Source: a virus. From it: a stretch of DNA of 24,301 nt. Location: the UHGV virus genome UHGV-1420800. One strand, 5' to 3'. Shown piece by piece: positions 1 to 24,301 of the stretch (position 1 is the first letter of the stretch; every line of letters starts with the position of its first letter). A model generated the notes under the pieces. The model saw nothing but the letters and a program-made list of their open reading frames with translations, made no database searches and was not told the DNA's origin. Made by a program: the position numbers and the translations under genes.

Positions 1-44
1 ATAGCGTAGCGTCTCGTGGGCTCGGAGATGTGTATAAGAGACAG
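1..44. other. Library adapter: reverse complement of Nextera/Tn5 mosaic-end read-through adapter (CTGTCTCTTATACACATCTCCGAGCCCACGAGAC, 11-44) preceded by about 10 nt of index-like sequence
   Basis: Positions 11-44 read gtctcgtgggctcggagatgtgtataagagacag, the exact reverse complement of the Nextera adapter; the forward form recurs at the other end of the window. Not biological sequence. Confidence 0.9.
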
Positions 45-13923: not shown

Positions 13924-15218
13924 TGGCATTAAATGAAGGTCAACTGGTCACGTATGCTCTGGATGAAATCATCGAAACCGTCCAGAACCTGACGCCAATG
14001 GCGTCCAAAGTGACAAAATACACCCCTCCGGCAGAATCCATGCAGCGTTCAAGCAACACCGTGTGGATGCCTGTTGAGCAGGAAGCGCCAACCCAGACTG
14101 GCTGGGATTTAACTGGCAACGCAACCGGGATTCTGGAACTCTCCGTGAAATGCAACATGGGCGATCCGGATAACGATTTCTTCGAGCTTCGTGCAGATGA
14201 CCTGCGTGATGAGCGTTCTTACCGTCGCCGCATCCAGGCATCCGCCAAAAAACTGGCGAATAACATTGAGTCAGCGATTGCCAAACAGGCAACTGAAATG
14301 GGCTCGCTTGTTGTTCACGATACCCGCGCAATTGGTCCATCTACTGGCCTGTCTGGCTGGGATTTTGTGTCTGATGCAGAGCGCCTGATGTTCTCCCGTG
14401 AGCTAAACCGCGATATGGGCATCAGTTACTTCCTGAACCCTGACGATTACCGCAAAGCAGGCCGCAACCTGGTAGATGGTGACATCTTTGGGCGCGTTAC
14501 TGAAGAAGCGTATCGCAACGGTACTATTCAGCGTCAGATTGCTGGCTTTGATGAAATTCTTCGCTCACCGAAACTTCCGGCAGTTACCAAGTCAACCGCT
14601 ACTGGTGTAACTGTTTCTGGTGCGCAGAAGTTTAAGCCGCAGGCATACACCCTTGATACCGATGGTAACAAAGAGAACGTCGATAACCGTGTTGCAACGG
14701 TGACCGTATCCTCCACCACCGGATTTAAGCGCGGCGACAAAATCAGCTTCACTGGTGTGAAATTCCTGTCTCAGATGGCGAAGAACGTGCTGACTGATGA
14801 TGCGACTTTCTCAATCACCCGTGTGATCGATGGTACTCACATCGAAATCACGCCGAAGCCGATTGCGCTGGATGACGCGTCACTGACAAAAGAAGAGAAG
14901 GCTTACGCTAACGTAAACACCTCTCTTGCTGATAGCACTCCGGTAAACGTTCTGAACGTGGCAACAACCACCGCTAACGTGTTCTGGGCTGATGACTCAA
15001 TCCGTCTGCTGTCTCAGCCGATCCCGGTAACCCATGAACTGTTTGCTGGCATGAAAACGTCTTCCTTCAGCATTCCTGGTATTGGTGTTAACGGCATCTT
15101 CGCAACGCAGGGTGATATCAACACTCTGTCTGGTAAGTGCCGTATTGCTGTGTGGTATTCAGCATGTGCTGTACGACCAGAGGCAATTGGTGTTGGTCTG
15201 CCTAACCAGACTGCGTGA
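13923..15218 (+). CDS. 5: Major capsid (coat) protein (P22 gp5-like, HK97 fold)
   Basis: 431 aa; MALNEGQ... N-terminus and many recognisable P22 coat stretches ([45 protein letters not shown]). Confidence 0.95.
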
Positions 15219-15224
15219 TAACCA

Positions 15225-15250
15225 GAGGGAGCTTCGGCTCCCTTTTTTAT
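15225..15250 (+). terminator. Intrinsic terminator downstream of coat gene
   Basis: gggagc-ttcg-gctccc hairpin (6-bp stem, UUCG tetraloop) at 15227-15242 followed by TTTTTT. Confidence 0.75.
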
Positions 15251-15262
15251 CTGGAGACAAGC

Positions 15263-15494
<232 letters not shown>

Positions 15495-15517
<23 letters not shown>

Positions 15518-15995
15518 TTTAGTTCTTGCGGCATTACGTAAGCTCGGTGTGGCATCAAATGCCACGTTAACCGATGTCGAACCGCAGTCTATGGAAGACG
15601 GCGTCAACGACCTTGAAATGATGATGGCGGAATGGCTTGGCGGTGATGCGTCACCAGGTATCAACGTTGGCTACATTTTCGCTGATGCAGATGTCGCTCC
15701 AGATCCGGGCGATGAGCACGGTTTATCAAATAACGCTATCAATGCCGTCATTTTCAACCTTGCCTGCCGCATTGCTCCAGATTATGCGCTGGAAGCTTCT
15801 GCAAAACTTATAACCACTGCCAGATACGGGAAAGAGCGACTCGTCAAACTGTCTGCAATGGACAGAGCAAAAGCCGCTAAATGTAAGTCTGGTTATCCAA
15901 ACCGTATGCCTGTTGGTAGCGGTAATCAGTTGGCGAAGTGGAACGGTTGGAATTACTTCCACCGGAAGGAACCTTGCGATAACGGGAGCGAATAA
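15495..15995 (+). CDS. 4: Head completion / tail accessory factor gp4 (P22 gp4-like; portal-binding, reported muralytic activity)
   Basis: 166 aa from ATG 15495: [33 protein letters not shown]..., recognised as P22 gp4; AAGG-type RBS upstream. The ORF track start at 15402 would add an SQ-repeat extension, which is judged unlikely. Confidence 0.85.
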
Positions 15996-17414
15996 ATGCC
16001 GATTCAGCAACTTCCGCTTATGAAAGGTGTCGGCAAAGACTTTCGAAACGCCGACTATATCGACTATCTGCCAGTGAATATGTTGGCTACACCCAAAGAA
16101 ATCCTGAACAGCAGCGGATATCTTCGCTCATTCCCGGGCATTGCCAAACGTTCTGATGTGAACGGCGTATCGCGCGGCGTCGAGTACAACATGGCGCAGA
16201 GTGCTGTTTATCGCGTGTGTGGTGGCAAGCTCTACAAAGGAGAAAGTGAAGTCGGTGATGTTTCCGGAAGTGGTCGTGTATCAATGGCGCATGGTCGGAC
16301 ATCTCAGGCGGTTGGCGTTAACGGGCAACTGGTCGAGTATCGCTATGATGGCACGGTTAAAACCGTCTCAAACTGGCCTACAGACAGCGGATTCACGCAG
16401 TATGAGTTAGGCTCAGTCCGCGACATTACGCGCTTACGTGGGCGTTATGCGTGGTCAAAAGACGGAACTGATTCATGGTTCATCACTGACCTTGAAGACG
16501 AATCGCATCCTGACCGCTACAGCGCACAATATCGTGCAGAATCGCAGCCTGACGGCATCATTGGCATCGGAACATGGCGAGACTTCATCGTCTGTTTTGG
16601 TTCATCGACGATTGAGTATTTTTCCCTGACGGGTGCAACCACCGTTGGTGCTGCTTTGTATGTCGCACAGCCATCTCTTATGGTGCAGAAAGGCATTGCC
16701 GGAACTTACTGCAAAACGCCATTCGCTGATTCTTATGCGTTCATCAGCAATCCGGCAACGGGTGCACCGTCTGTATACATCATTGGCTCCGGGCAGGTGT
16801 CACCAATCGCCAGCGCGAGCATTGAGAAAATCCTCCGCTCCTACACTGCTAATGAACTGGCTGATGGTGTAATGGAATCGCTGCGATTTGATGCGCATGA
16901 GCTTCTGATTATCCATCTTCCGCGTCACGTCCTTGTGTACGACGCATCTTCAAGCGCCAATGGTCCTCAATGGTGTGTGCTGAAAACAGGGCTGTATGAC
17001 GATGTGTACCGCGCTATCGACTTCATTTACGAAGGCAATCAGATAACGTGCGGCGATAAGCTGGAATCGGTTACCGGCAAATTGCAGTTCGATATCAGCA
17101 GCCAGTACGACAAGCAACAGGAACACCTGCTGTTTACTCCACTGTTCAAAGCGGATAACGCCAGAGTGTTCGACCTTGAGGTTGAATCGTCAACTGGCGT
17201 TGCGCAGTACGCCGACCGCCTGTTCCTCTCTGCAACCACTGACGGCATAAATTACGGTCGTGAGCAGATGATTGAGCAGAATGAACCATTCGTTTACGAC
17301 AAACGCGTTTTGTGGAAGAAAGTAGGGCGCATCAGGAAAAACATTGGTTTCAAATTGCGCGTTATCACGAAGTCACCTGTCACTCTGTCTGGCGCTCAGA
17401 TAAGGATTGAGTAA
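15996..17414 (+). CDS. 10: Tail accessory factor gp10 (P22 gp10-like)
   Basis: 472 aa, same length as P22 gp10; in the conserved order 4-10-26. Confidence 0.9.
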
Positions 17415-18262
17415 TGGCGGATTCGAATCTCAATGTGCCGGTAATCATCCAAGCTACGCGGCTCGATACATCAGTCCTTCCACGCAATATCTTCTCGCAG
17501 TCGTATCTGCTTTACGTTATCGCACAGGGCACTGATGTTGGTAACGTGGCTAACAAGGCCAACGAGGCCGGACAGGGCGCTTATGACGCACAAGTCAGGA
17601 ACGATGAGCAGGATGTGATTCTCGCTGACCATGAGCAGCGAATTTCTGCTGCGGAAGCAACGCTTGTTAATCATGAGGAGCGAATCAGCCAGGCAGAATC
17701 AACTCTTCAGGAACATGAAACACGAATAGCTCAGAATGAAAGCGATATTGCGTCTCTTGATACCAGAGTTCAGTCGCTCGAATCGCAGGTTTCAGACCAT
17801 GAAACGCGCATCGATGCTCTGGAGTATGCCACTACTCGCAAAAAGTCAGAGGTTGTTTACTCTGGCGTATCTGTAACCATCCCGACAGCGCCGACCAACC
17901 TTGTTAGCCTGCTGAAAACGCTCACTCCGTCATCCGGCACGTTGGCACCGTTCTTCGACACCGTTAACAACAAGATGGTTGTGTTCAACGAGAACAAAAC
18001 CTTGTTCTTCAAGCTGTCGATCGTCGGGACGTGGCCCAGCGGAACCGCCAACAGGTCAATGCAGCTAACCTTTTCCGGCTCTGTTCCTGACACACTGGTA
18101 AGCAGTCGCAACTCGGCGACAACAACCGATAACATCTTGTTAGCTATGTTCTTCAGCGTGGATAAAGACGGCTTTCTTGCCACAAATGGCAGCACGTTAA
18201 CCATTCAGTCAAATGGTGCGGCGTTTACTGCCACAACCATCAAGATAATCGCGGAGCAGTAA
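17414..18262 (+). CDS. 26: Tail needle protein (gp26 family) with non-P22 C-terminal domain
   Basis: N-terminus [43 protein letters not shown] matches the P22 gp26 gp10-binding tip; followed by a trimeric coiled-coil with repeated HE-RI motifs and a roughly 140-aa C-terminal domain unlike P22's. At 282 aa it is longer than the 233 aa I recall for P22 gp26. Confidence 0.8.
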
Positions 18263-18717
18263 TGATTCAGTTCAAACCAACGCGAAACATCGACCTGATC
18301 GAAGCAGTCGGAAATCACCCTGACATTATTGCCGGAAGCAACAATGGTGATGGATACGATTACAAGCCTGAATGCCGTTACTTTGAGGTTAACGTGCACG
18401 GTCAGTTTGGCGGCATTGTTTACTATCAGGAGATTCAGCCGCTGACATTCGATTGCCACGCCATGTACCTGTCAGAGATTCGCGGCTTCAGCAAGGAAAT
18501 CGGGCTGGCGTTCTGGCGATACATTCTGACTAACACCACCGTTCAGTGCGTCACATCGTTCGCTGCGCGCAAATTCCGCCACGGTCAGATGTACTGCGCA
18601 ATGATTGGCCTTAAGCGTGTAGGAACCATCAAGAAATACTTCAAAGGCGTGGATGACGTGACGTTTTACAGCGCCACACGCGAAGAACTAATCGACTTCC
18701 TGAATCACGGGAGATAG
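18262..18717 (+). CDS. gp14-like virion assembly/ejection-associated protein
   Basis: 151-aa ORF in the slot occupied by gene 14 in P22-like phages (between tail needle and ejection proteins); assignment by synteny only. Confidence 0.5.
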   Translation: MIQFKPTRNIDLIEAVGNHPDIIAGSNNGDGYDYKPECRYFEVNVHGQFGGIVYYQEIQPLTFDCHAMYLSEIRGFSKEIGLAFWRYILTNTTVQCVTSFAARKFRHGQMYCAMIGLKRVGTIKKYFKGVDDVTFYSATREELIDFLNHGR

Positions 18718-18719
18718 CT

Positions 18720-19412
18720 ATGTTATATGCATTTAAGCTGGGCAGAAAACTGCGCGGCGAGGAACCTTATTGCCCTGAAAAAGGCGGGAAAGGTGGCAGC
18801 TCTGATAAAAGCGCAAAGTATGCAGCAGAAGCTCAGAAGTATGCCGCAGACCTGCAAAATCAGCAGTGGCAGACGATCATGAAAAACCTTGCTCCGTTCA
18901 CGCCGCTTGCGGAGCAGTATGTTAACCAGCTTCAGAATCTTTCCAGTTTAGAAGGTCAGGGGCAGGCACTTAATCAGTATTACAACTCTCAGCAGTATAA
19001 AGACCTTGCAGGTCAGGCGCGTTACCAGAGTCTTGCTGCTGCGGAGGCGACGGGTGGACTTGGTTCGACAGCCACAAGCAATCAACTGGCTACGATCGCG
19101 CCGACACTCGGTCAGTCTTGGTTATCAAATCAGATGAGCAATTACAACAATCTGGCAAACGTTGGGCTTGGTGCGCTGCAAGGTCAGGCAAACGCCGGGC
19201 AGACGTACGCCAACAACATGAGCAGCATTGCACAGCAAAGCGCAGCACTTGCCGCTGCTAATGCCAATAAACCATCAAGTCTTCAGACTGCAATTAGCGG
19301 CGGCACGTCTGGTGCGATTGCCGGTGCAGGTCTTGCCAGCCTTTTGGGAACATCAACGCCTTGGGGCGCTGGCATTGGTGCTGGTATCGGATTGCTTGGC
19401 TCGTTGTTTTAA
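18720..19412 (+). CDS. 7: Ejection (internal virion) protein gp7-like
   Basis: 230 aa; N-terminus MLYAFKLGRKLRGEEPYCPEKGGKGG recognised as gp7 type; Gly/Ala-rich hydrophobic C-terminus. Confidence 0.85.
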   Translation: MLYAFKLGRKLRGEEPYCPEKGGKGGSSDKSAKYAAEAQKYAADLQNQQWQTIMKNLAPFTPLAEQYVNQLQNLSSLEGQGQALNQYYNSQQYKDLAGQARYQSLAAAEATGGLGSTATSNQLATIAPTLGQSWLSNQMSNYNNLANVGLGALQGQANAGQTYANNMSSIAQQSAALAAANANKPSSLQTAISGGTSGAIAGAGLASLLGTSTPWGAGIGAGIGLLGSLF

Positions 19413-19421
19413 GGGGTAATC

Positions 19422-20753
19422 ATGGCTACTTGGCAAGGATCAAATGGCGGATTGTTAGCTGGTATCGGCGGCGTCAACTCAAACGCTCCGAGCGTAAATG
19501 ACATCGGCAATACGCTTCAGCTTATCAGGCAGAACAATGATATTGAGCGTTCAGGCGCTAACAATGTTGGGCTTACTGCTTTGCAAGGCCTTTCAGGCAT
19601 TGCAGGGGTGTTTCAGCAGGAAAAGCAGGCTCAGCGGCAGAAAGAATTTCAGCAGGCGTACGCTAATGCTTATGCGTCTGGTGATCGCGGTGCTTTGCGT
19701 CAGTTGGCTACTCAATATCCAGACCAGATTGAATCCGTCCGTAAAGGCATGGGGTTCATTGATGAAGACCAGCGTAATTCTATCGGCACCTTAGCGGCTG
19801 GCGCACGCCTTGCGTCATCGTCTCCAGAAGCAATGCAATCATGGCTGCAAAACAACGCCGGTGAGTTAGCTCGTGTTGGCGTTAATCCTCAGGACGTCGC
19901 TCAGATGTACCAACAGAACCCGCGGCAGTTCGGCGAATTTGTCGATCACCTGGGGATGAACAGTCTCGGACCCGAAAAATACTTTGACCTACAGGATAAA
20001 ATGCAGGGTCGCCAGGTTACCATGCGCGGTCAGGATCTGGATTCGCAAACCGCCGCTCGGAATCAGGCAATCACAATGCGCGGGCAAGATATCCAGGCGA
20101 ATTTAGGTCAGCAGCGCATTAATCTGGACGCAGAAACAAACCGCATTAACAACGAAAATAAGCGCCTTGACCGGATGCTATCAGCAGAAACTAACGACCT
20201 GAAGCGCCAGGAAATACAGAGCCGCATAGCAGCCAACAACCAGCAGTTGCAGCAGAAGCAGCAAGCGCTAAATGATGGCTACAAAGACGGCATCAACACC
20301 CTCACAACCAGCATGTTCACTCTGAACGATATCGTTAGTTCTCCTTCACTTAAGAGCATTACAGGCTTACGTGGAGTAATCCCCAACGTTCCAGGCTCAC
20401 AGGCTGCAGACACTCAGGCACGACTTGATACCTTTAAATCCCAAGCATACCTGACAGCGGTTCAGGCCATGCGAGGCATGGGCGCACTTTCTGATGCCGA
20501 GGGCAAAAAGCTCGACCAGGCTGTTGGTTCGCTGCAGAACTCGCAGAGCGAGGAGTCCTTTCGTCGCAACGCTGGCGTCATCCTGAACACGCTCAACCAG
20601 AAGCGTAATGAGGCGGTTGGTAAGTACGTTCAGCAAAACGGTATCAAGCGAGTGGAAGCGCCTCAGGCTTCTATAGATTACCTGAAGCAACACCCCGAGC
20701 TGTCAATCGACTTCATTAATCGCTACGGATATCTTCCATCTTTGGGGCAGTAA
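19422..20753 (+). CDS. 20: Ejection protein gp20-like
   Basis: 443 aa, Q/N-rich, in the conserved 7-20-16 order; stop is adjacent to the start of the next gene. Confidence 0.85.
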   Translation: MATWQGSNGGLLAGIGGVNSNAPSVNDIGNTLQLIRQNNDIERSGANNVGLTALQGLSGIAGVFQQEKQAQRQKEFQQAYANAYASGDRGALRQLATQYPDQIESVRKGMGFIDEDQRNSIGTLAAGARLASSSPEAMQSWLQNNAGELARVGVNPQDVAQMYQQNPRQFGEFVDHLGMNSLGPEKYFDLQDKMQGRQVTMRGQDLDSQTAARNQAITMRGQDIQANLGQQRINLDAETNRINNENKRLDRMLSAETNDLKRQEIQSRIAANNQQLQQKQQALNDGYKDGINTLTTSMFTLNDIVSSPSLKSITGLRGVIPNVPGSQAADTQARLDTFKSQAYLTAVQAMRGMGALSDAEGKKLDQAVGSLQNSQSEESFRRNAGVILNTLNQKRNEAVGKYVQQNGIKRVEAPQASIDYLKQHPELSIDFINRYGYLPSLGQ

Positions 20754-23147
20754 ATGGCTAATTACCGTGATTTGTTAGAGCAGGCTGGCGCACGTTACGG
20801 TGTGCCAGAAGGGTTGATGACTGCACTGGGTGCCAAGGAGTCTTCTTACAACCCTGCCGCAGTAAGCTCCGCCGGGGCTGTAGGATTGACTCAGGTCATG
20901 CCTGGGACATGGCGTGATATGGGTTATACCGATGAGCAAATGCAAAACCCCGAATATCAGGCTGACGCTGGCGCGCGCTATCTGGCAAAGATGTACCAGC
21001 AGTTTGGTAACTGGCGTGACGCTCTTCAGGCTTATCACGACGGTCCCGGCAACGTTATGAAGGCAAAGCGTGGTGAATATACGCCAGGGCCTGAAGGCCG
21101 CGGTTACGTTGATGATCGCTTTGCTCAATGGGCGGGTGACCCGGTGACAGACTCAACAGTAGAACAGCGCGCCACCTCTGCAAAGGTACATCCTCAGCAA
21201 GACCCTAACAACCCGTTTGCACAACTGGAAGCACAGTCATCCGAACAAGTATCGGCATCAGGCGTGCAGTCAGACCCAAATAATCCATTTGCTCAGATTG
21301 AGCAGCAGGCAGCCAGTCAGCAGCCACCTCAACCCGTAAGTTCTGTCGCACCGAAACCTGTTCAGCAGCAAGGCGGAATAATGTCTGACCTTGGTAATGG
21401 ACTTGCTGAAACCGGGCGCGGCTTACTACAGGCAGGAATCAACGTAGCGAACATACCTGCTGAACTCACTGATGCTGTAACAAGCGCGGCGGCTTGGGCT
21501 GGCGGTAAACTCGGCATTGGCGATGGTACATATCAACCAGCACCACGAGTAACAACGCAGGGATTAGAGCAGGACTTTGGCCTTCAGCAAGGCGCGCTGA
21601 CTCCACAAACGACAGAGGGAAGGGTATTTGCTGAAGCATTGCCTTACCTCACTCCTGCTGGCGTTGAGAGAGCGGCAGCACAGGCACCAACACTTGCTGG
21701 TCGAATTGCTCAGGGGGCAACTCGCCTTCTCGCAGAAAACGCAGTTGGATCACTTGCTGCAAACAGTGCGAAAGATGATGCGGAAGCACTCGCCACCGAT
21801 TTAGGCGTTGGTGTGCTGGCTGGCGGTGCTATTAACGCTGCCGGACGTGGATTAGGTGCTGCTTATCGTGGTGTTCGTGGTTCGATAGCACCAGAAGCGC
21901 AACAGGCTATCAGATTTGCAGAACGTGAAGGAGTTCCTCTGCACACCACAGACCTGTTACAACCCATTTCCCGCGTCGGAAAAATGGCGCAGACGACAGC
22001 GGAAAATATCCCCCTGGCTGGCACAAGCGGAATGAGAGCAACGCAACAGGAAGCGAGAAGCCAGTTGGTGCAGAGATTTGCTGATAAATTCGGTGAGTAT
22101 GATCCAGCTGTTGTTATTGACAGCCTTAAAGCGAAAACATCAGGAATTCGTCGTGCTGCAGGGAACCGTCTTGAGCAGGTTCAGAATGCTATGGCGGGAA
22201 TAAACATTCAGCCTGCAAGAGCAATTCAGCAGATTGATACAGAAATATCTAACCTGCAGAAGCTTGGTAAGGTTGCTGATAACGAGACTATTTCAAAACT
22301 TCAGTCCTATCGTGATGAGCTTGTTCGCAATGCTGGTCCTGATGGTCCGGTAAATCTGGATTTGAAGCAATTAAGCGATCTGCGCAGCCAGTTCAGAATG
22401 GACGTGAAGGGGGAGCGACCAGTGTTACCAAACCGTTCCGATGCTGCCATTCAGCGCGTTTACAAGGCAATGACCGACGATATCAATGGTGCCATTGGTC
22501 AGAATCTTGGCAACGATACTCTCCGTAAATATCAGCAGGCCAATGCCGTCTACGCTGACGAAGCGGCGAAACTAAAGAATACCAGGCTGAAGAATGTTCT
22601 CATGAAAGGCGACCTGACGCCGGAAGTTGTCAACAACATGCTATTCAGCAAGAACAAATCGGAAATTAAGACGCTGTATAACTCAGTTGGTCGTGTTGGC
22701 AGGGCGCAAATGCGCAATGGCATCATTGGAAAGGCGATGGAGAAATCAGGTGGTTCCCCTGACCAGTTCCTTCGACAGCTTAACATCCTGCAAAACCAGA
22801 CTGGCATCACATTTAAAGGTCAGGAAGCCGCTTATCTGAAAGGATTGAAAAACTACCTGCAATCCACGCAGCAGGCTGCAAAAGCGGCAGTAACAACACC
22901 AACAGGGCAGCAAACCATCCCGTTCATTATCGGATATGGGACAGCAATGAACCCTGCGACAACTGGCGCAGCGGTAAGCTACGGACTTCTTACTCGCGCC
23001 TATGAGAGCGAGCCATTCAGAAATGCAATGCTCCGAATGGCAAACACCCCACGCGGATCAACAGCGTTCGAGAAAGCCATGCAGCAGGCACAAAAGGCCA
23101 TTAACGCCCTGACTCAGGGGGCTAAGTCTGATGCGCTGTCAGAATAG
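20754..23147 (+). CDS. 16: Ejection protein gp16-like with N-terminal soluble lytic transglycosylase (SLT) domain
   Basis: 797 aa. Residues about 20-100 carry the SLT signature ...AKESSYNPAAVSSAGAVGLTQVMPGTWRDMGY...YLAKMY...AYHDGPG (catalytic Glu in the ES motif). The rest is Ala/Gly/Gln-rich like E proteins. Confidence 0.8.
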   Translation: MANYRDLLEQAGARYGVPEGLMTALGAKESSYNPAAVSSAGAVGLTQVMPGTWRDMGYTDEQMQNPEYQADAGARYLAKMYQQFGNWRDALQAYHDGPGNVMKAKRGEYTPGPEGRGYVDDRFAQWAGDPVTDSTVEQRATSAKVHPQQDPNNPFAQLEAQSSEQVSASGVQSDPNNPFAQIEQQAASQQPPQPVSSVAPKPVQQQGGIMSDLGNGLAETGRGLLQAGINVANIPAELTDAVTSAAAWAGGKLGIGDGTYQPAPRVTTQGLEQDFGLQQGALTPQTTEGRVFAEALPYLTPAGVERAAAQAPTLAGRIAQGATRLLAENAVGSLAANSAKDDAEALATDLGVGVLAGGAINAAGRGLGAAYRGVRGSIAPEAQQAIRFAEREGVPLHTTDLLQPISRVGKMAQTTAENIPLAGTSGMRATQQEARSQLVQRFADKFGEYDPAVVIDSLKAKTSGIRRAAGNRLEQVQNAMAGINIQPARAIQQIDTEISNLQKLGKVADNETISKLQSYRDELVRNAGPDGPVNLDLKQLSDLRSQFRMDVKGERPVLPNRSDAAIQRVYKAMTDDINGAIGQNLGNDTLRKYQQANAVYADEAAKLKNTRLKNVLMKGDLTPEVVNNMLFSKNKSEIKTLYNSVGRVGRAQMRNGIIGKAMEKSGGSPDQFLRQLNILQNQTGITFKGQEAAYLKGLKNYLQSTQQAAKAAVTTPTGQQTIPFIIGYGTAMNPATTGAAVSYGLLTRAYESEPFRNAMLRMANTPRGSTAFEKAMQQAQKAINALTQGAKSDALSE

Positions 23148-23236: not shown

Positions 23237-23497
23237 TTATCTGCTGTCTTTTTTATATAGCTTCTTGAGCGTATCAAAGACAATTTTCTTAACCATATCA
23301 GATTGTTGTTCTGCCATACGCTCTGCATCGTCAATGTAAACTGATGCAGAGCTTTGTTTATCCAATGATTCCTCAATCGCTGCAATTATCTCTGAGTTCA
23401 GCGACCTGTTATTCATCTTCGCACGCTGCTTAATTTTCGAGTGGAGTTCATGCGGAAGTCTCAAGTGAAACTGCGCCTCGTCGTATTTGCTGTACAT
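23237..23497 (-). CDS. mnt: Mnt-like repressor (Arc/MetJ ribbon-helix-helix family)
   Basis: Reverse-strand ORF; from Met12 (RBS AAGGA upstream) 86 aa: ...QFHLRLPHELHSKIKQRAKMNNRSLNSEII...DDAERMAEQQSDMVKKIVFDTLKKLYKK, closely resembling P22 Mnt (RHH N-terminus, C-terminal tetramerisation helix). Alternative start at 23530. Confidence 0.8.
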   Translation of the reverse strand: MYSKYDEAQFHLRLPHELHSKIKQRAKMNNRSLNSEIIAAIEESLDKQSSASVYIDDAERMAEQQSDMVKKIVFDTLKKLYKKDSR

Positions 23498-23618
23498 CCT
23501 TGATGCCTCACCAGTTGGGTGGAATGGCATCGTAACCTACTGGATAAATACTCAATAGTACCATTTCGGTATGCAATCACATCATGGTTGCATCATATCA
23601 TTCGTCTGGAGCAATGAA
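23498..23618. promoter_or_regulatory. Divergent control region between mnt and tailspike, containing inverted repeats (candidate operators)
   Basis: Inverted repeat ATGCAA-N11-TTGCAT at 23571-23593 and a shorter TACT-caat-AGTA at 23549-23560; AT-rich; must carry the leftward mnt promoter and any rightward tailspike promoter. Exact promoter elements not resolved. Confidence 0.4.
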
Positions 23619-24276
23619 ATGTCAGATATCACCGCAAATGTTGTGGTAAGCATGCCTTCGCAACTCTTCACTATGGCTCGTTCTTTTAAAGCCGTAGCCA
23701 ATGGCAAAATTTATATCGGTAAAATTGACACTGACCCGGTAAACCCTGAAAACCAGATTCAGGTTTATGTGGAGAACGAAGATGGTTCTCACGTTCCTGT
23801 TTCGCAACCAATCATCATTAACGCTGCTGGATATCCGGTATATAACGGACAGATTGCCAAGTTCGTAACTGTGCAAGGCCATTCTATGGCTGTTTATGAT
23901 GCGTACGGTGTGCAGCAGTTCTATTTTCCGAATGTGCTGAAGTACGACCCTGATCAATTTCGAAGTGAGCTGTCTGAAGAAGATGGTGCAACTAAAATTG
24001 GATACTTGGCCGGTACAGTAGCGGATAGTTTGTCATATTGGGCAACGCCAGAGCAATATGGAGCAATTGGAGATGGTGTAGCTGATGATACAGTGGCGGT
24101 GACTAATGCTATTATGACTGGAAGATGCCTCATGAAGAGAGGTTCCACATATCGTATGGTGATGAATGAGGAAAATGTCATCACTCCCCCAGCTGGTGCA
24201 TATATTGATTTTAACGGTGCTAGAATAACTCATGAGAAAACTGGGTACCTTGTTTTTCTTAACAAAAACCAAGACG
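23619..24276 (+). CDS. 9: Tailspike protein, 5' part (P22 gp9-type head-binding domain followed by a beta-helix/pectate-lyase-like receptor-binding domain); 3' end cut off by contig end
   Basis: ATG 23619 (GGAG 8 nt upstream): [43 protein letters not shown]...[10 protein letters not shown] matches the conserved P22-like tailspike N-terminal domain. Then ...[24 protein letters not shown]..., a motif typical of right-handed beta-helix glycanases. Frame is open to the adapter junction. Confidence 0.9.
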
Positions 24277-24301
24277 CTGTCTCTTATACACATCTCCGAG
24301 C
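24277..24301. other. Library adapter: Nextera/Tn5 mosaic end CTGTCTCTTATACACATCT plus CCGAGC (start of read-through adapter)
   Basis: Exact match to the Nextera transposase adapter, mirror image of the sequence at 11-44. Confidence 0.9.

Follow-up and report, generated by a model that had tools for sequence, protein, structure and literature searches.

In phages P22 and Sf6 the tail hub is plugged by a homotrimeric tail needle, which is released when the phage infects (PMC3741392, PMC9728967). In the cryo-EM structure of Sf6, the plug forms a quasi-sixfold helical hairpin within the gp10 hexamer, retaining the packaged DNA (PMC9728967), while an NxxQD motif in P22 gp26 provides a Ca2+-coordinating layer (N@a/Q@d/D@e) (PMC13580157). 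The shafts of both needles comprise 11 heptads (PMC3741392). At the tip, P22-type needles (with subtypes represented by HK620, epsilon34 and P22, HK620 being the type phage of subtype A) carry a triple β-helix and an inverted coiled coil instead of the jellyroll knob (PMC3741392). The Sf6 needle is already well studied, through the crystal structure of its knob (PDB 3RWN), a cryo-EM map of the virion, swaps and point mutants.

Here we analyze a needle gene found in a 24,301-nucleotide stretch of viral DNA (the whole of which is called the window below), following up a preliminary description made from the sequence without database searches. The gene almost certainly belongs to a temperate P22-like phage (Lederbergvirus), or prophage, of Escherichia coli and encodes an Sf6-type (knob-bearing) tail needle. 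This reading is supported by the open reading frame (ORF), by near-identity to Sf6 gp9 and to the crystallized knobs, by the conserved residues for ligand contact, by the heptads of the shaft and by the neighboring genes, and nothing in the sequence speaks against it. The product is an already known, well-characterized protein, and the value of the finding lies in a correct annotation of the contig and in one more example of needle-gene mosaicism in P22-like phages. The features are collected in Table 1.

Table 1. Positions in the window of the needle gene, its parts and the neighboring genes (aa numbers in the rows on parts of the needle refer to needle residues)
Feature	Position	Strand	Basis
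Needle gene (position of Sf6 gene 9 / P22 gene 26)	17414..18262	+	282 codons plus TAA stop
N-terminal plug domain (aa 1-60), predicted to insert into the gp10 tail-hub channel	17414..17593	+	homology
α-Helical coiled-coil shaft (aa 58-140), about 11 heptads	17585..17833	+	AlphaFold2, heptad pattern, HMMER
NxxQD polar core motif (N63-D64-E65-Q66-D67), start of shaft	17600..17614	+	sequence reading
Five in-register 14-residue repeats, consensus xHExRIxxxExxLx (aa 72-141)	17627..17836	+	
Knob domain (aa 141-282), TNF-like jellyroll trimer in homologues	17834..18259	+	3RWN, 4K6B, PF16532
Ligand-contact span: E146, K200, S248, D250 (L-glutamate in homologues); S231-R232-N233 (phosphate, distal tip)	17849..18163	+	
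Codon 245, ATG (Met)	18146..18148	+	
gp4 tail accessory factor	within 15402..15995		Pfam
gp10-type tail hub, 472 aa, binding partner of the needle	15996..17414	+	PF11134 (Phage_stabilise), 991 bits
gp14-type gene, DUF2824, 151 aa	18262..18717	+	PF11039, 177 bits
gp7	18720..19412		Pfam
gp20	19422..20753		Pfam
797-aa protein at the gp16 position, N-terminal SLT domain	20754..23147		PF01464, 88.6 bits
Mnt-type repressor, Arc and Repressor_Mnt domains	23237..23530	-	Pfam
Tailspike, P22-type head-binding domain at its start	from about 23619, 23619..24276	+	Pfam

The open-reading-frame listing gives an ORF with an ATG start and a product of 282 aa; the ORF, this length and four coiled-coil motifs quoted in the preliminary description are present exactly as it reported them. 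Gapless alignment with Sf6 gp9 (NP_958185.1) shows 277 identical residues out of 282 (98%), with the substitutions S92R, E100D, A113S, M245T and A270S (window residue first), and the DNA identity to Sf6 gene 9 is 96.9%. The two proteins have in common their length, the three-part architecture and the ligand-contact residues, and the two genes occupy the same position, between a gp10-type hub and a gp14-type gene. The closest E. coli match is to a prophage of strains H5/H6, and the H6 protein (WP_073464425.1, RefSeq "tail needle knob protein") is 100% identical. Family searches agree: Pfam PF16532 (Phage_tail_NK, "Sf6-type phage tail needle knob") scores 388 bits (E=5e-117; cut-off 27 bits) and is the only Pfam family above threshold, and PHROG 1030 (phrog_1030, "tail needle knob") matches over the full length (E=2.9e-134). 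The NCBIfam scan returned only coiled-coil noise far under the cut-offs and no curated model for the needle. The name given in RefSeq agrees with that of the Pfam domain. Of 5426 complete E. coli genomes, 487 have a copy that spans 80% or more of the query.

The first 60 residues are identical to those of the Sf6 needle and nearly invariant in comparison with the needles of Sf6, HK620 and IME10. They also match the N-terminus of P22 gp26, including residues 1-62 of chain 8eap_B. Counted from the printed alignments, 59 of the first 72 residues match P22 gp26 and 68 of the 72 match HK620 gp26. In a HMMER search of all PDB chains, residues 1-137/144, shaft included, align to the P22 gp26 structures 2POH, 3C9I, 4ZKP and 4LIN (E~1e-44). 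The preliminary description had assigned the first ~45 residues to a gp26-like segment; the N-terminus is indeed gp26-like, but the extent was understated, the homology reaching about residue 140. By analogy with the Sf6 cryo-EM structure (PMC9728967), residues 1-60 are predicted to serve as the plug.

In the heptad register derived for the window needle, N63, Q66 and D67 of the NxxQD motif fall on positions a, d and e, and the motif may bind Ca2+ as its P22 counterpart does. From there the hydrophobic a/d pattern runs unbroken from residue 63 to 136, with L70, I77, L84, I91, L98, I105, I112, V119, V126 and I133 at a, and H73, A80, H87, A94, H101, N108, L115, L122, H129 and L136 at d. The NxxQD layer and the His residues at d are shared with P22-type needles. 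A single-sequence AlphaFold2 model gives one helix over residues 58-140, with mean pLDDT of 86-95 per 10-residue block over residues 71-130. The four quoted motifs ("HE-RI") occupy residues 72-84, 86-98, 100-112 and 128-137, and a fifth, degenerate 14-residue copy at residues 114-127 closes the gap between them, giving five two-heptad units. The units are in perfect register, and in heptad terms the HE-RI motif is an every-second-heptad signature of the coiled coil. Tandem Repeats Finder detected no 42-nt DNA repeat in the needle gene, and the 14-residue periodicity therefore exists at the protein level only and does not reflect a recent DNA duplication.

Shaft length differs among Sf6-type needles: those of HS1 and Gally have 317 aa and 16 heptads, versus 282 aa and 11 heptads in the window needle (PMC3741392). 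The Gally needle, which belongs to the HS1 length class, has a 35-residue (five-heptad) shaft insertion relative to window positions 17714..17760, and its knob has Thr245 and A270, like that of HS1. This whole-heptad insertion indicates that shaft length varies in whole heptads, while the knob is nearly invariant.

The C-terminal part matches two crystallized knobs. Among all PDB chains, the knob of the Sf6 "Gene 9 protein" (3RWN) aligns to residues 130-282 over 153 residues with E=6.5e-90; M245T and A270S are the differences in native sequence, and the remaining mismatches are the first two residues of the crystallization construct. The knob of the E. coli prophage HS1 (4K6B) aligns over the same residues with E=1.9e-89; the two differences are M245T, within the knob, and D134S, in the short stub of the shaft. 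Expect values this low, like those for P22 gp26 and PF16532, lie well outside chance similarity. A single knob residue thus separates the window copy from HS1; A270 is found in both, in contrast to Ser in Sf6. The architecture proposed in the preliminary description, a plug and coiled coil followed by a distinct globular knob, is borne out by these matches together with the 277 identities to Sf6 gp9. Its description of the C-terminal domain as Thr/Ser-rich holds to a limited degree, Ser plus Thr making up 27.5% of the C-terminal 142 residues versus 21% of the whole protein, a modest enrichment.

The AlphaFold2 model (single sequence) shows strands after residue 145 with a mean pLDDT of 59 for the knob, falling below 50 over residues 172-198 and 222-260. 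Given this low confidence, the assignment of a TNF-like jellyroll fold rests on the 99% identity to 3RWN and 4K6B, from which the window knob is expected to adopt the same fold. The ligand roles listed in Table 1 come from a published residue list (PMC3741392), and all seven contact residues are kept in the window knob with the same numbering as in Sf6. From the literature on Sf6, HS1 and P22, the window knob is predicted to bind L-glutamate. Homologues of the knob also occur as stand-alone or differently fused proteins (36-57% identity, about 276 phage records), which lack the gp26-type plug and shaft; they come from Vi01-like, T4-like and other phages with hosts in Salmonella, Klebsiella, Dickeya, Aeromonas, Vibrio and Edwardsiella. 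The glutamate-contact residues are reported to be conserved in these proteins (PMC3741392).

From the studies of Sf6, HS1 and P22, the following course can be proposed for the window needle. Three copies would trimerize into a fiber, and after packaging the helical hairpins of the N-terminal about 60 residues would plug the hexameric gp10 channel so that the genome stays in the head. The trimeric coiled coil of residues about 58-140 (about 11 heptads) would project the knob beyond the tailspikes, placing the jellyroll of residues about 141-282, with three L-glutamate molecules bound between its subunits, at the outermost tip of the virion. Once the tailspikes have digested the O-antigen, the needle may reach the outer membrane and be expelled, so that gp7, gp20 and gp16, the ejection proteins, could pass with the DNA through the opened channel. 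The needle tip would modulate the speed of release rather than the choice of host. The trimeric state and the plugging function are carried over from the characterized needles, as are the binding of glutamate, the expulsion and the effect on kinetics.

The preliminary description had regarded the distal domain as a candidate determinant of host range or of triggering, and had suggested domain swaps and measurements of ejection kinetics; such experiments were published in 2013 (PMC3741392). P22 carrying the Sf6 shaft plus knob behaves as wild type, K+ release included, whereas P22 carrying the HS1 knob alone releases K+ at 40-70% of the wild-type rate, and needles tipped with a foldon are functional in P22 and slower (PMC3741392). 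Mutants in the glutamate-contact residues show unchanged virion function and K+ release (PMC3741392). The authors of that study considered a role in host specificity unlikely and a role in delivery kinetics supported (PMC3741392). Accounts of the distal domain as a trigger or kinetic determinant therefore stand, while the host-range half of the claim is weakened by the P22 chimeras (PMC3741392).

The host-range idea can be put in a stronger form, in which the knob binds a receptor, a specific component of the Escherichia/Shigella envelope, and thereby sets host range, in the manner of the structurally similar adenovirus fiber knob and PRD1 P5. The TNF-like fold is common to receptor-binding knobs, all knob-bearing P22-like phages in a survey of 164 genomes infect Escherichia or Shigella, and a specific role in Sf6 infection of Shigella was left possible by the authors (PMC3741392); the position of the knob at the outermost point of the virion fits as well. 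Nevertheless, P22 virions bearing the Sf6 or HS1 knob are stable and infect Salmonella normally, and mutation of the glutamate-contact residues is without effect (PMC3741392). In the published account of Sf6, receptor recognition depends on the tailspike (LPS) and on OmpA/OmpC (PMC9728967). Variation points the same way: knob sequences of different phages differ by no more than 4.9% (PMC3741392), while the receptor-binding part of the tailspike differs between relatives. In the window, similarity to IME10 and to E. coli prophages ends at about 23956, the end of the tailspike head-binding domain, which indicates that the receptor-binding part of this tailspike differs from that of the closest relatives. 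With the knob near-constant and the tailspike variable, it is the tailspike, and not the knob, that shows variability of the host-range type. We consider a receptor-binding knob unlikely, and favor a needle tip that would act on the kinetics of delivery.

Residue 245 is the sole distinctive feature of the window copy among the sequences sampled. Thr occupies this position in eight of nine sampled relatives (Sf6, HS1, Louie, Kapi1, Gally and three E. coli prophages), and Met245 is shared with the ninth only, the E. coli H5/H6 prophage. S248 and D250, two of the residues for glutamate contact, follow it by three and five positions, and a strand at 246-249 is predicted by the single-sequence AlphaFold2 model, whose confidence in the knob is low. 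If a β-strand is formed there, residue 245 would face away from S248 and D250. One might speculate that in native Escherichia/Shigella hosts the knob and its L-glutamate serve specifically to sense the envelope or to punch through the membrane, a role that P22/Salmonella chimeras would have been unable to show, and that the rare T245M change, in the same strand as S248 and D250, may tune that role; we regard this as improbable. The purpose of the knob and its glutamate is a question for the whole family that the window copy does not advance, and this copy offers no better entry to it than Sf6 or HS1.

The gene could instead be a non-functional leftover of a decayed prophage. More than 100 E. 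coli genomes contain small P22-like remnants with an Sf6-type needle gene (PMC3741392), and the window is a partial contig from which an intact or inducible phage is not demonstrable. Against this, the needle ORF is uninterrupted and its product is exactly as long as Sf6 gp9. Its 26 nucleotide differences from Sf6 gene 9 comprise 21 synonymous and 5 non-synonymous changes, a distribution that indicates purifying selection on the gene. The late operon is also complete, running from the lysis genes through three ejection proteins to the start of the tailspike: 5' of gp4 lie the lysis genes, the small and large terminase subunits, and the portal, scaffold and coat genes, followed by the canonical order gp4–gp10–needle–gp14–gp7–gp20–gp16, in which the needle is placed as in Sf6 and the E. 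coli H6 prophage. The stop codon of gp10 overlaps the start codon of the needle gene by one base, as does that of the needle gene with the start of gp14 (TAATG in both cases). One-base overlaps of this kind are typical of translationally coupled late genes. On the strength of the intact ORF, the 21:5 ratio and the complete operon, a pseudogene or remnant was rejected as very improbable.

Sf6 is not the closest relative of the genome around the needle gene. The whole window is most similar to the E. coli phage IME10, with 84% coverage and 96.8% identity, and to various prophages of E. coli, which reach at most 82% coverage and 97% identity. IME10 has a 233-aa needle of the P22/HK620 type (18056..18757 of IME10). 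Its identity to the window, 94% over gp10, is about 65-75% in the first 200 nt of the needle gene and then lost, returning to 97.5% from gp14 on, while identity to Sf6 stays at 93-100% (30-nt bins) through the needle gene. This loss of IME10 identity between highly similar flanks marks the needle gene as a mosaic cassette that has been swapped, with junctions close to its boundaries. Horizontal exchange of virion-assembly genes is known in P22-like phages (PMC3741392).

Comparison with HK620 sets the window needle apart from the needle of IME10. The plug and shaft of the P22-type needles (gp26 of P22, HK620 and IME10, 233 aa; PDB 2POH, 3C9I, 5BU5) are homologous to those of the window needle, while their C-terminal tip is unrelated to the window knob. 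BLASTP of the C-terminal 143 aa against HK620 gp26 gave zero alignments even at E<=100, and in a whole-protein alignment to the HK620 needle the columns beyond about residue 95 are spurious. The likeness to knob-bearing needles of Sf6/HK620-type phages given in the preliminary description holds for Sf6 and fails for HK620, whose gp26 is of the 233-aa P22 type; its distinction of the C-terminal domain from P22-type needles is upheld by the HK620 BLASTP result. A P22/HK620-type needle such as that of IME10 is refuted by this result and by the 3RWN and 4K6B matches. That the protein is a P22-type needle, with a triple β-helix and inverted coiled-coil tip, whose C-terminus has merely diverged past recognition can be dismissed with near certainty: the gp26 homology of the N-terminal 140 residues and the 233-aa P22/HK620-type needle of the nearest whole-window relative favor it, but BLASTP finds nothing to align between the C-terminal 143 aa and HK620 gp26 even at E<=100, and the C-terminus is 99% identical to the Sf6 and HS1 knob structures.

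Several further observations concern the genes around the Sf6-type needle gene. Between the coat gene and gp4 lies a small gene (ORF 15215..15517, 100 aa) in which a perfect (CAGAGC)x6.7 hexanucleotide repeat at 15408..15447 encodes (EP)n; its counterpart in Sf6 encodes 61 aa, and that in the E. coli H6 prophage 86 aa. Read in the other frame, the same repeat gives a spurious QSQSQS N-terminal extension on the longest gp4 ORF. The Pfam P22_Tail-4 match begins at residue 33 of that ORF, and the true gp4 start is therefore probably Met32 (about 15495), which would give a protein of 166 aa as in the H6 prophage. The protein at the gp16 position, the third ejection protein, is annotated as "lytic transglycosylase domain-containing protein" in related E. 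coli prophages; in Sf6 the corresponding protein has only 665 aa, and the DNA of the two genes is similar in patches only. The Mnt-type repressor is the sole gene between it and the tailspike, and no arc or ant was seen there, unlike in the E. coli H6 prophage. The tailspike ORF runs off the contig, with its receptor-binding part mostly outside the window.

Both ends of the window carry the Illumina Nextera transposase adapter, at 11..44 (GTCTCGTGGGCTCGGAGATGTGTATAAGAGACAG, 5' end) and at 24277..24301 (reverse complement, CTGTCTCTTATACACATCTCCGAGC, 3' end). The window has exactly two copies of the 19-mer mosaic end, where chance would give 0. The presence of adapter at both ends indicates that the window is a whole assembled contig from which the adapter was not trimmed. 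The ORF at 24033..24293 on the minus strand, which starts with "MCIRDS" inside the adapter, is an artefact.
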